Source: Nanobdellota archaeon
Lineage (GTDB): Archaea; Nanobdellota; Nanobdellia; Woesearchaeales; GW2011-AR9
Assembly: GCA_038044525.1 (NCBI GenBank)
Contig: JBBSZV010000025.1
Span: 1 to 49,891 of the forward strand
DNA length: 49,891 nt
Direction: 5' to 3'
The translations under genes and the position numbers were made by a program. Shown in pieces: positions 14,692 to 21,023 of this stretch. Within the stretch, counting starts at the first letter, position 1; the number at the start of each line of letters is the position of its first letter. The notes under the pieces are model-generated. The model had not been told where the DNA came from, made no database searches, and saw nothing but the letters and a program-made list of their open reading frames with translations.

Positions 14692-15384
14692 TCATTTTTT
14701 CGCGCGCGACGACGGGACTACCCCGCGAGAAGCCCTGTTGTTGTAGTTGTAGCTGCCGACATAGAACCTGCTGCCGAAGCTGCCACGACCAGCAGGCAGA
14801 ATCTGTCCGTCAGCAGGCAAGTATAACTGCGCTCGTTTACCGTCTTCACACATTGCCTGCGGCAGCTGCGCAAACTTCCGCGTGTACAAAAATTCAACAA
14901 GATCATTGCCAAACTGGTTCAAATCGACCAATTTAGTTGATGGAATGCCGGCGATAGAAAAATCTCTCTTACTTTCAAACGTGAAATTTTCCATCACATA
15001 AGTAGAACCATTCCACACCAATCCTTCTGGATCGGTGTAAATTGTAAGTTTATCTTTGTTTCTTTCCATCGCCGCACTCAGCCATTCGCCATAGCTGTTC
15101 AGCATGTCCTCAGCTATTGATTTCTGTTCAGCAGTTACTTTGTTTTCAAGATTGGCGATCAGCAGGCCGAACACTTCCTGCGGACGAGGATGTCTGGTTT
15201 GACCGCGGCTTCTCAAACTGGCCAGGCTAGCGTCGTAGGTCAAAAGTTTCTTATTGCTGCCTTCGTAGGTGGCTTTCGCTTCAAACTTCACATCCTGAAG
15301 CACCAAATAATCGTCTAAGCTATAAGGTGGTTTGATTATCGGCTCCTTTTTCTCTTTCCAGCCAAGACTAAAATCTACCGGCAT
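14692..15384 (-). CDS. DGR variable (target) protein with C-terminal VR
   Basis: 230 aa. The last ~35 aa are encoded by the VR (LPAGRGSFGSRFYVGSYNYNNRASRG). No signal peptide. The ATG lies immediately after the TAA stop of the upstream gene, in the same frame. Confidence 0.7.
   Translation of the reverse strand: MPVDFSLGWKEKKEPIIKPPYSLDDYLVLQDVKFEAKATYEGSNKKLLTYDASLASLRSRGQTRHPRPQEVFGLLIANLENKVTAEQKSIAEDMLNSYGEWLSAAMERNKDKLTIYTDPEGLVWNGSTYVMENFTFESKRDFSIAGIPSTKLVDLNQFGNDLVEFLYTRKFAQLPQAMCEDGKRAQLYLPADGQILPAGRGSFGSRFYVGSYNYNNRASRGVVPSSRAKK
14723..14799 (-). repeat. DGR variable repeat (VR)
   Basis: Counterpart of the TR. TR AAC codons read as AGC/GGC and TR AAT as TAT in the VR. GC-rich IMH-like sequence at 14701-14722, which is absent from the corresponding TR flank. 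Confidence 0.7.
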
Positions 15385-16749
15385 TTAAATCCCCTCTTTC
15401 ACGGTCAATATATAATCAATCGCACTGGACAACAGCGTTTCAGCGTTTTTATGCGTCATTCTTCTCTCTTGATACGCTTGCATCAGCTGCGGTAATTTTG
15501 CGCCATGGGTCTTCTGCGCCTGCACCAGATCGGCAACGATATATGAAACTGCTTCTTCCGAAAGCTGATCCAGCATCTCCCAGAACGTTTTCTGTCCGGG
15601 AAGCTCGACTGCCTGAATAGAGTTATACGCTCTCACGAAAGAAGAAAAATCGTCAATTTTGGCGGCAATGTTTTCAGCTTGGGTAAGCAGGGTCAGGCTC
15701 GGCTTCACTTCTGCAGCATAGACCAGCTCTACTCCTTTGCTGGGAAGTTCTGATATGCTCTCTAAAGGAACCCCAGAATTGATCAGCCATTCTGTTTTAT
15801 CTCTTCCAACTTTACTTTCCAATCCGGCAATCTTTTCAGCTAACCCTTCGGTAAGACGTTCTTCAAAGAATCGCTCAAAGAAAGGTTTACCGGTTTCGTT
15901 GAAGTATCCCCAACGTTTATCCTTATGCACTTCAATGGCGCCAGTTTTGGTTTTAGCAGCGCTACCAAACGTATCTTCTCTATCAATAGCGCATCTTAAT
16001 CCGTTCTTCAACAGGACATGATGTTCTTTATGATTCGCCGCCGCCAAATACAGTTCTCCCTGCTGGTGCACTTCGTTGTATCCAAAAGCTGCTTTCAAGA
16101 ATGTATCAACTCCGGGCGGGGAATAATTAACTACCACTTTCTGACCATCAAGCCGTGCATCATAGCCCAGCTTGATCAGATTCCCTGCAGCTTTTTCAGC
16201 ATTGCTCAATTTAAAGACAGCTCGAGGGTGCCCTAAGCGCTGATAAGCCTGCACTACTTTCAATGGATCCTGCATCTCTTCTAAGGACACAAATTCACCT
16301 AAGGAAATTCCATCCTGGAGCGGAGCAGCGCGATTTCCATCCAGTAAGTTCAGCGTCTGCAGCAGGTGATATTCAGCATTCTGAGCAAAAAGAGCAACAA
16401 AATCAGCCGGAACAAAGAAATCCATGGCCAGCTGGGCAAGATTTTCTAAGAAAACTTTACCGTCCTTGTTATCTTTCCAATAATGCGCCTGAAAGCGATC
16501 ATAATTCTGCAGCAATGGATTTTCAGTTGCTGCTTGTTCTATGGCATTGATACGAGGATCCCATTGTTCAGAGTAAAGCCCTTTAAAGACAGTAGACATC
16601 CTATAAGCCAATTTTTGGTATTCCTTAGGATGCTGGGGCGTTCCTTTAGCGATACTTTCTGCCCGGACAGCATCCATATCTTTCAGTAAAGAATCCAAAT
16701 CTTTGCGCAGATCTGCATCCCGAATATCAACTTTGATTTTTGTGTTCAT
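15385..16749 (-). CDS. Hypothetical protein (DGR operon)
   Basis: 454-aa ORF. Its stop codon directly abuts the target gene's ATG. Confidence 0.5.
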   Translation of the reverse strand: MNTKIKVDIRDADLRKDLDSLLKDMDAVRAESIAKGTPQHPKEYQKLAYRMSTVFKGLYSEQWDPRINAIEQAATENPLLQNYDRFQAHYWKDNKDGKVFLENLAQLAMDFFVPADFVALFAQNAEYHLLQTLNLLDGNRAAPLQDGISLGEFVSLEEMQDPLKVVQAYQRLGHPRAVFKLSNAEKAAGNLIKLGYDARLDGQKVVVNYSPPGVDTFLKAAFGYNEVHQQGELYLAAANHKEHHVLLKNGLRCAIDREDTFGSAAKTKTGAIEVHKDKRWGYFNETGKPFFERFFEERLTEGLAEKIAGLESKVGRDKTEWLINSGVPLESISELPSKGVELVYAAEVKPSLTLLTQAENIAAKIDDFSSFVRAYNSIQAVELPGQKTFWEMLDQLSEEAVSYIVADLVQAQKTHGAKLPQLMQAYQERRMTHKNAETLLSSAIDYILTVKEGI

Positions 16750-16815
16750 GTTGTGCCTCCATAAGCGTAGTTATGCTGATTGGTATTCTGTTCTTTAGGT
16801 TGGATTTGGATCAGA

Positions 16816-20338: not shown

Positions 20339-20357
20339 ATTTTATTCCTCCAGCTTC

Positions 20358-21023
20358 TCATTTCACCAATCCATCCAGTATTTCTGCGGTTGATTTGTAA
20401 ATCACTTTTGCATTATTTAATAGAAGCAAGTTCACTGGATCGCCATTCTTATCTTTTGTCAAAGAGAAAAAGTGGTGATCTGAAGCATCTTTGGTAAATT
20501 TTAATCTTTCAATTCGTCCAGTTTTTTTACAATATTGTGGTTTTGCTGAGAATTTCCCGTCTATGTATTTTATAAATCCATGTTTATCTCTACAATCAAT
20601 TTCACGGTCAAACCGATAAATCAATCCATCTTGAGTTCGGCGTGGAGTAAATTTTATGTCTGCGAAAGTAAGATTAAGTTGCAGATAATCATCATCTTCA
20701 TCATCTTGTTCGGCATCAGCATCATCATCTTCATCATCTTGTTCGGCATCAGCAAAGAACTCCCCCCTCCCATAAAGAGAGATAAGTTTTTCAGAATCAA
20801 ACTCTGGTTCAAGAAGAAAACTTCCTTCAACCATCTGCCTATTTTTAAGGATAAGATCTGGATAATCACTATCATGTCCTCTAATCTTCATGCCTTTTGG
20901 TATTCTATAACTGCCTTTAATCTCATGGAGAATTTTATACTGCTCAAGTATTTTTTCCAAAATCGGAGGTTCGACCGTAGAAGAAAAACCCCGTCCAAAA
21001 TCTATTATCCTGTCAACCGGCAT
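20358..21023 (-). CDS. Hypothetical protein with acidic 11-aa tandem repeat (first gene of the DGR operon)
   Basis: 221-aa ORF. ADAEQDDEDDD x2 is encoded by a perfect 33-bp tandem duplication. Confidence 0.5.
   Translation of the reverse strand: MPVDRIIDFGRGFSSTVEPPILEKILEQYKILHEIKGSYRIPKGMKIRGHDSDYPDLILKNRQMVEGSFLLEPEFDSEKLISLYGRGEFFADAEQDDEDDDADAEQDDEDDDYLQLNLTFADIKFTPRRTQDGLIYRFDREIDCRDKHGFIKYIDGKFSAKPQYCKKTGRIERLKFTKDASDHHFFSLTKDKNGDPVNLLLLNNAKVIYKSTAEILDGLVK
20688..20753 (-). repeat. Perfect 33-bp x2 tandem duplication within a CDS
   Basis: atcatcatcttcatcatcttgttcggcatcagc is repeated head-to-tail at 20688-20720 and 20721-20753. Confidence 0.8.

Follow-up and report, generated by a model that had tools for sequence, protein, structure and literature searches.

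We analysed a 49,891-nucleotide stretch of DNA (hereafter the window), a whole 49.9-kb contig of a metagenome-assembled genome (MAG) of a Nanobdellota archaeon from Hainich groundwater (GenBank assembly GCA_038044525.1, contig JBBSZV010000025.1). Our subject is a cluster of six open reading frames (ORFs) at positions 14692-21023, in which a tandem AAA+ ATPase is encoded together with five other proteins, the last of them the variable protein of a diversity-generating retroelement (DGR). Some of the smaller proteins begin with related short sequences that open with Met-Pro, here called the MP tag; proteins bearing it are referred to as clients, after the role proposed for them below. Protein families are named by the length in amino acids (aa) of their window members, and related loci are numbered (L001 and so on). 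A first-pass annotation had described six packed minus-strand genes, and the ORFs agreed with it in coordinates and sizes. The six genes lie on the chromosome of a DPANN (Nanoarchaeota) archaeon and represent a rare, uncharacterised operon family. From 5' to 3' on the coding strand, the cluster and the adjoining DGR, with its template repeat (TR), variable repeat (VR) and reverse transcriptase (RT), comprise the following features.

20358-21023, minus strand: 221-aa acidic-repeat protein, a tagged client (ORF).
18719-20338, minus strand: tandem AAA+ ATPase, 539 aa (ORF and Pfam).
17568-18722 as an ORF, or 17568-18716 from the favoured ATG, minus strand: 384-family protein, a core partner encoded directly 3' of the AAA gene.
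16816-17571 as an ORF (251 aa), or 16816-17562 from the favoured ATG (248 aa), minus strand: 251-family protein, a tagged client.
15385-16749, minus strand: 454-family protein, a conserved core component (ORF).
14692-15384, minus strand: DGR variable protein (the target), 230 aa (ORF).
15200-15285, minus strand: junction inside the target gene, seen by comparison with AAA-operon contigs and with L017.
14718-14799, minus strand: VR (TR/VR comparison).
14460-14645, minus strand: RNA motif RT-16 (Rfam RF03019), abutting the TR on its 5' side and scoring 73.2 bits (gathering score 50).
14379-14460, minus strand: TR (TR/VR comparison).
13252-14346, minus strand: DGR RT, 364 aa from the ATG at 14346 (RVT_1 4e-24, PHROG 1423 RT 1e-116, PADLOC RT 6e-53).

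Packing is tight: whichever start codons are used, only 0-66 nt separate neighbouring genes. At 15382-15387 the stop codon of the 454 gene directly adjoins the start codon of the target gene (TAA ATG), as had been noted before. Two ATGA overlaps had also been proposed. The one at 17568-17571 is present in the sequence, but the ATG at 17562, which leaves a 5-nt gap instead, is favoured as the start of the 251 protein because of the gene calls of its orthologues and the MP N-termini that they share. The other does not hold: positions 18719-18722 read GTGA on the coding strand, and every orthologue of the 384 protein begins at the ATG at 18716 (MLKQKL...), 2 nt past the stop codon of the AAA gene. 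The remaining gaps measure 19 nt (221 to AAA) and 66 nt (251 to 454). All six proteins have hydrophilic N-termini, and none contains a 19-residue segment with a Kyte-Doolittle value of 1.6 or more. This simple hydropathy test, the sole basis used, supports the earlier view that they lack signal peptides and transmembrane (TM) segments; all six look cytoplasmic, as had been suggested for the variable protein.

The last gene of the cluster proved to be a true DGR target, as had been claimed. The TR lies 33 nt upstream of the RT start, and over 82 nt it differs from the VR at 10 positions, nine of which are TR adenines. The tenth mismatch has G in the TR and A in the VR; it reflects a point change in the TR, because L017, with a 100% identical RT, has an A at that position. 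The VR ends 26 nt before the target stop codon. The same RT is accompanied by differing VR alleles in L036, L037 and L017, and alleles also differ between the two target paralogues of L001. The differences between samples and between paralogues fall mostly at TR adenines, and the DGR is therefore active in the population. The locus thus has a DGR-type RT beside a TR, an adenine-biased TR/VR pair at the 3' end of a target gene, and ongoing diversification. No ORF lies between the target and the RT, and the ORF list and a Pfam scan gave no Avd-like accessory gene nearby. This does not disqualify the element as a DGR, since 29% of catalogued DGRs also lack accessory genes (PMC5758913). An RT-16 motif is found 5' of the TR in all four of the Avd-less DGRs that we compared (window 14460-14645, minus strand; L041:13715-13889; L017:5447-5632; L022:13184-13355), which suggests that the RT-16 RNA is the structured 5' arm of the template RNA in an Avd-less DGR subtype.

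The 230-aa target consists of the N-terminal tag (aa 1-27, MPVDFSLGWKEKK...), a body resembling AvpA/TaqVP and the VR at its C-terminus. An AlphaFold2 (AF2) model leaves the 27 tag residues disordered and gives the body the C-type-lectin fold of the AvpA/TaqVP class, with the variable residues on the C-terminal face; a fold of this kind had been expected from the sequence. The resemblance lies in the predicted structure, sequence identity to AvpA and TaqVP (PDB 5ioo, 5vf4; PMC5006420, PMC6328139) being only 9-11%. A PDB sequence search found no detectable homology between the target family and PDB chains, and nothing rose above noise in profile scans of the target against Pfam, NCBIfam, PHROGs and PADLOC. 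We also considered whether the target is a diverged 251 paralogue; this was rejected, as alignment of the 251 family with the target family in hhalign showed no relation apart from the tag.

The 539-aa protein contains two PF00004 AAA modules, in agreement with the first reading of the sequence, and also an AAA_lid_3 domain (Pfam). Its first module (D1) is degenerate, with NEVD in place of DExD as Walker B and no aromatic pore loop. The second (D2) is canonical and carries GPPGTGKS, DEID and an aromatic KWVG pore loop. Among PDB chains VAT and p97 match it best (about 1e-73), and proteasome-activating nucleotidases are also among the closest relatives. With Cdc48, VAT and p97 the protein shares the two modules, the lid and the D2 pore loop. 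It differs from them in D1 and in lacking the N-terminal double-psi-barrel adaptor domain, its first Walker A lying at residue 62. It also scores 190 bits on the NCBIfam CDC48 model (TIGR01243) against a cutoff of 802, and is encoded with dedicated novel partners. By these sequence features it belongs to the classic AAA clade and is not a Cdc48 orthologue. The canonical D2 pore loop and the kinship with VAT and p97 suggest that it is a threading unfoldase. The ATPase is 67% identical to its counterpart in L010 and 46% to that in L041.

The four remaining proteins (454, 384, 251 and 221) had been left unassigned in the first-pass annotation, and indeed none has a match in Pfam, NCBIfam, PADLOC or PHROGs; the 454 and 384 proteins also lack PDB matches by sequence. 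The 384 protein is conserved in an N-terminal domain of about 190 aa and in a C-terminal helix, between which lies a strain-variable His/Glu-rich insert. Its orthologues hold the same position in L001, L002, L010, L038 and L041, and the sole match in a metagenome scan with the family was another Hainich contig. The 454 protein was modelled with very high confidence (predicted local distance difference test, pLDDT, 91), and the model had no meaningful fold match in PDB or BFVD; as modelled, the fold is new relative to these two databases. Word-indexed homologue searches gave only three clusters for the 454 protein and two for the 251 protein. An exhaustive hidden Markov model (HMM) search with 454 returned about nine full-length relatives and about 80 proteins that match the N-terminal 140 residues only; none of those scanned carries a Pfam domain. 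Two conserved protein families are thereby defined, one of them with a confidently predicted fold, and together with the adaptor-domain-less Cdc48-like ATPase they may represent new archaeal unfoldase adaptors.

Two further observations concern these partners. In the window the insert of the 384 protein is a His/Glu-rich repeat of about 125 aa (17762-18147, minus strand), which the orthologues in L001 and L010 lack. The 454 protein is 100% identical between the window (15385-16749) and L001 (L001:8605-9969), whereas the flanking operon genes are only 59-89% identical at the protein level; this suggests that the gene either recombined recently or is under very strong constraint.

The 221 and 251 proteins behave differently from the core. 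The acidic repeat ascribed to the 221-aa protein is present as a tandem ADAEQDDEDDD x2; the protein is 99.5% identical in L001 and absent from the distant L010 and L041. The 251 family is represented by one to three paralogues per locus, with paralogues aligned from L001, L002, L010 and L011. At L038 a tagged 274-aa client, a putative family member at most, occupies the slot of the 251 protein.

Related operons were found in the following loci, given in gene order, with genes named by family or by protein length and radical S-adenosylmethionine enzymes as radical SAM.

L001, Hainich, about 89% nucleotide identity: Fic-221-AAA-304-253-245-454-target-target-radical SAM; no RT within 6 kb.
L002, same strain: a tandemly duplicated pair of 384-family and 251-family genes (L002:1208-2852).
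L010, 454 family 41% identical: AAA-298-274-271-459-268-radical SAM-127; no DGR.
L038, a short contig: 296-274-471.
L041, 454 family 25%, AAA 46% and RT 45-50% identical: AAA-384 family-454 family-target A-radical SAM-target B-RT-16-TR-RT.

From these comparisons, the conserved unit is the AAA gene, the 384 and 454 families, usually a radical-SAM gene, and a variable complement of small proteins. The six-gene operon is consequently not the unit that it had been taken for: the 221 and 251 genes are variable clients, and the radical-SAM gene, which belongs to the set, has no counterpart in the window. The gene directly after the 454 homologue in L010 is a 251-family paralogue. The radical-SAM proteins of L001, L010 and L041 match prokaryotic viperin (pVip) models over the radical-SAM core only (E-values 1e-14 to 1e-19) and score below the NCBIfam viperin and MoaA cutoffs, a generic resemblance of the core.

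Recurrence of this neighbourhood next to DGRs had been proposed as a check, and it holds for the operon type: L001 has DGR targets and L041 a complete DGR, so that DGR targets occur within this operon type in two distant lineages. It does not hold for the six-gene set, which is not conserved as a unit, and L010 is free of a DGR. In L001, assembled independently from another sample, the same MP-tagged lectin gene directly follows the 454 gene. The L001 targets retain the VR 3' end and a sequence like the initiation of mutagenic homing (IMH) element and differ from each other at TR adenines; they are therefore diversified wherever their RT lies. L041 contains a three-copy TR/VR repeat with mismatches mostly at TR adenines, and its targets gave no tblastn match to the window target.

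The variable small proteins of these operons all open with the pattern MP-x-[K/D/P]-Φ-x-[I/L]-x-Φ-K, in which hydrophobic and basic residues alternate. In the window the tagged proteins are the 221-aa protein (MPVDRIIDF...), the 251-family protein (MPVKMSLSLKGKE...) and the VR protein. Examples from these loci are MPVDFSLGWKE, MPVKMSLSLKG, MPVDRIIDFGR, MPKPLIITLKE, MPQKFPLNFRE, MPVKFKIKYDE, MPIKFPLKFKE and MPEPIIIKIKK. Twelve distinct tag types occur on at least six unrelated bodies, all 12 starting with MP and 10 of the 12 having I or L at position 7. A permissive form of the pattern, run against six-frame translations of the window, L001, L010 and L041, matched operon genes only, a descriptive result, since the pattern had been fitted to these same sequences. 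The tag also appears on differing bodies within a locus. In L010 the first 72 nt of four genes are 81-92% identical while the 40 nt upstream are unrelated; the 127-aa product of one of these genes has a body unrelated to the rest. In L041 two targets carry an identical 26-aa MP tag, encoded on a 91-nt repeat that is 98% identical. Downstream of its radical-SAM gene, L001 encodes an unrelated 159-aa protein that also carries the first 35 aa of the 221 protein.

One way to read an invariant MP start beside an ATPase of this kinship is regulated proteolysis, in which the AAA+ protein would be a variant of a Cdc48-type proteasome activator, the MP tag would act as a degron through its N-terminal Pro after Met removal, and DGR variation would be unrelated to the function of the ATPase. 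The closest relatives, VAT/Cdc48 and the proteasome-activating nucleotidases, fit this account. Proteasome docking uses a C-terminal motif of the hydrophobic-Tyr-X type, however, and the C-terminus of the window ATPase (...SITIRR) lacks it. A simple degron would also leave unexplained the dedicated partners (384, 454 and radical SAM) and the transfer of tag and client together with the operon. We judge proteolysis distinctly improbable.

Outside this operon the lectin body bears other N-termini (MAKIDLSGIHV... and ...FAGF[SD]xE[DE]...), and the window target differs from its MoxR/vWA-linked relatives over the first ~31-33 residues, tag included. L017 (167-5400) encodes a 648-aa P-loop protein (648a; GPKSSGKT, IDEYNR), a target, a second 648-aa protein with HExxH and DxSxS (648b), a second target, the TR and the RT; this RT is 100% identical to that of the window and lies in a different upstream context. 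L022 (8574-13144) is arranged alike, with a MoxR-like gene, a target, a vWA-like gene, a target, the TR and the RT. The partners in L017 and L022 are labelled MoxR-like and vWA-like (the latter with MIDAS-like as well as HExxH motifs) from a by-eye reading of motifs and from their arrangement, the L017 648-aa proteins having no significant Pfam, PDB or PADLOC match. At L029:9830-16066 and L030:8940-17743, arrays of 7-10 paralogues with a shared '...FAGFSxEDA...' start are bordered by a MoxR-like gene (419 aa) and a vWA-like gene (586 aa); several of the paralogues end in VR-like '...GRARGVR...GGAQ' tails, and no RT was present within the 20 kb fetched. One lectin body with two tags in two ATPase systems suggests a general rule for recruiting DGR binders into cellular machines.

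Target homologues were also seen inside ribosomal-protein operons, at L016:4548-5177 (59% identity) and L019:9956-10621 (74%), on contigs that carry no RT. In L016 the homologue lies between L30 and L15/SecY.

The comparison with L017 bears directly on how the operon and the RT come to be neighbours. The window shares about 96-100% identity with L017 downstream of about 15200, and upstream of 15285 the two are unrelated; upstream of the junction the window matches AAA-operon contigs instead. The break lies inside the target gene, just 3' of the tag-bearing segment of ~31-33 residues. On the AAA side every contig of the same strain stops at 15093-15170; the contigs on the RT side begin at 14835/14836. 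The adjacency of the RT is uncertain because the join to the operon lies in the repeated target gene, where all other assemblies break; it could be real, as a recombinant or deletion variant, or a collapsed repeat. An extreme form of this doubt holds that the DGR and its lectin targets belong to an L017-type MoxR-like/vWA-like locus, that the window join is an assembly collapse or a recent deletion or recombination, and that the operon is functionally unrelated to the DGR. Besides the near identity to L017, with its identical RT and its upstream genes 648a-target-648b-target, and the contig ends just described, it can draw on a 165-nt remnant of the 648b 3' end that L001 retains upstream of its second target copy. 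Against it, L001, from a separate sample and assembly and at about 89% nucleotide identity, has the MP-tagged lectin directly after the 454 gene; its targets keep the VR 3' end and the IMH-like sequence and differ at TR adenines; and L041 independently has a complete DGR and two tagged targets in the same operon type. An accidental association is unlikely in our estimation. The functional link between operon and DGR does not depend on the window join, because L001 assembles a tagged lectin after 454 and L041 has an RT in this operon type.

Taken together, we lean, at somewhat better than even confidence, towards a tag-directed client system that has a Cdc48-like unfoldase at its base and counts the DGR-diversified cytoplasmic lectin among its clients. 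The core would be a double-ring AAA+ unfoldase, Cdc48/VAT-like but N-domain-less, in which D1 is degenerate and the pore loop of D2 could thread substrates; it would be joined by two novel proteins of the 384 and 454 families and, in most relatives, by a small radical-SAM enzyme. The clients would be interchangeable proteins of unrelated bodies that share a short, probably disordered N-terminal MP tag. We infer that the tag docks them onto the core, either by engaging the ATPase pore or by strand addition to the 384 or 454 protein, after which the ATPase might remodel, load or release them. An Avd-less, RT-16-type DGR would keep rewriting the ligand-binding face of the AvpA-like lectin client, and the machine would thereby gain a hypervariable recognition module. 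A tag swap at the N-terminus may have recruited the lectin body, which under another tag would serve MoxR-like/vWA-like ATPase pairs elsewhere. The most likely role would be intracellular recognition, in conflict or defence or in sensing viruses or host factors.

Several points weigh against this model. About six loci supply the gene orders and sequence patterns on which it draws, and several of these loci are short or frameshifted. Because the tag pattern was fitted after the fact, it offers no independent test, and recent duplication or gene conversion may account for part of the tag conservation within a locus. The window lacks the radical-SAM gene, and only the window contig spans 14836-15093 to join the operon to the RT. 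The target family, which the earlier reading had tied to this operon, occurs mostly outside it: beside MoxR-like/vWA-like genes (L017, L022, L029 and L030), in ribosomal operons (L016 and L019) or alone (L014), with the MoxR-like/vWA-like pairs and solitary settings being more frequent than the operon. Finally, the cluster has no recognisable effector domain (nuclease, protease, TIR or similar), and a defence role is speculative for that reason.

The same features could serve a different end, namely a chaperone, assembly or export-preparation system in which the ATPase and its partners unfold or assemble tagged proteins bound for the surface of this episymbiont or for its host cell, and the lectin acts outside the cell, the usual proposal for DGR targets of DPANN archaea. 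Unrelated bodies sharing N-terminal tags next to a threading-competent AAA+ protein would suit it, and there is a parallel in extracellular contractile injection systems, where Pvc15/Afp15-type loading couples a tandem AAA+ protein to payloads of unrelated folds that share a disordered N-terminal leader. AvpA-like proteins have moreover been suggested to enhance symbiotic relationships (PMC5006420). On the other side, no membrane, secretion, sheath, tube or baseplate component is encoded in the operon or in any relative, which sets the locus apart from the injection systems, and the six proteins have no signal peptides or TM segments. Export preparation is, in our view, an improbable function.

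The tag-directed client system must also be set against known ATPase-coupled binders. The idea of an intracellular, ATPase-coupled, DGR-diversified binder, put forward earlier as a candidate undescribed system, has in fact been described (PMC7159879, PMC10907252). The vWA-MoxR ternary conflict systems carry DGR-diversified FGS/C-type-lectin domains (Kaur et al., 2020; PMC7159879), and MoxR- and STAND-linked cytoplasmic DGR targets occur in multicellular bacteria (Doré et al., 2024; PMC10907252). The ternary systems resemble the present cluster in being NTPase-centred and largely cytoplasmic, with a DGR-hypermutated lectin binder proposed as sensor or effector, and the target family of the window is itself found in such a setting at L017 and L022. 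The window differs in having no MoxR-type AAA+ protein, vWA protein, VMAP or recognisable effector. Its ATPase is a tandem AAA protein of the classic clade, its partners (384, 454 and, in relatives, the radical SAM) are undescribed families, and its lectin is a separate small tagged protein, not a vWA fusion. Fusions of C-type-lectin (CLec) domains to AAA ATPases in candidate phyla radiation (CPR) bacteria, cited in PMC10907252 from Paul 2017, likewise pair a DGR lectin with an AAA-type ATPase in small-genome episymbiotic lineages. As described in that citation they are single-protein fusions, whereas the window genes are separate and linked by operon and tag, with a Cdc48-like double ring. 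The AvpA literature that we searched mentions no ATPase operon. ATPase-coupled, often cytoplasmic, DGR-diversified lectins are thus already known; this operon, with its ATPase class and partner families, is not.

More ambitiously, and as a doubtful possibility, the operon could be an undescribed modular DPANN machine in which the MP tag plugs proteins into a Cdc48-like unfoldase and DGR lectin binders have repeatedly been plugged in by tag swapping. If so, its mechanism of intracellular recognition would differ from those of the MoxR/vWA and STAND systems, and the diversity that it offers would be anticipatory. DGR targets are numerous in DPANN and CPR genomes, and this locus gives a testable proposal for how a cytoplasmic hypervariable lectin could be wired to an ATPase via a swappable N-terminal tag.

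The genomic setting speaks to the origin of the cluster. DGRs are common in phages and the island around the operon has mobile-type genes (Fic, nucleotidyltransferase), so it has to be weighed whether the DGR belongs to a prophage or virus and acts on a tail-fibre or receptor-binding protein. The cluster contains no phage-like genes: a PHROGs scan gave no structural matches and hit only a generic AAA, the 384 and 454 families had no relatives in IMG/VR scans, tblastn found none of the 384, 454 and target proteins in GenBank phages, and the 454 model is without a BFVD fold match. The upstream genes are therefore not phage structural genes, the outcome that the first-pass annotation had named as refuting its reading. 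The target has no phage structural genes around it, its contig also encodes the housekeeping proteins GatE, triosephosphate isomerase, DNA ligase and a RecQ-like helicase, and in L010 the operon adjoins the genes for archaeal TFIIB and eIF2-gamma. A viral origin is extremely unlikely.

The operon sits in a strain-variable island with a Fic gene, a nucleotidyltransferase/HEPN-like pair and a homologue of the major vault protein. At 21195-23209 a Fic-domain protein, which also matches the PADLOC candidate system PDC-S04, is encoded together with a divergently oriented nucleotidyltransferase and its 144-aa partner; with such flanks the neighbourhood looks somewhat like a defence island or toxin-antitoxin locus. 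A Fic gene is also found near the target homologue of L014. The vault-protein homologue (23587-25848, minus strand; 753 aa) is related to the major vault protein of eukaryotes by its Pfam matches to MVP_shoulder (6e-29) and Vault_3 (1e-6). Its gene is wholly missing from the otherwise syntenic L001 (junction at window 25901|23584) and is a strain-variable insertion.

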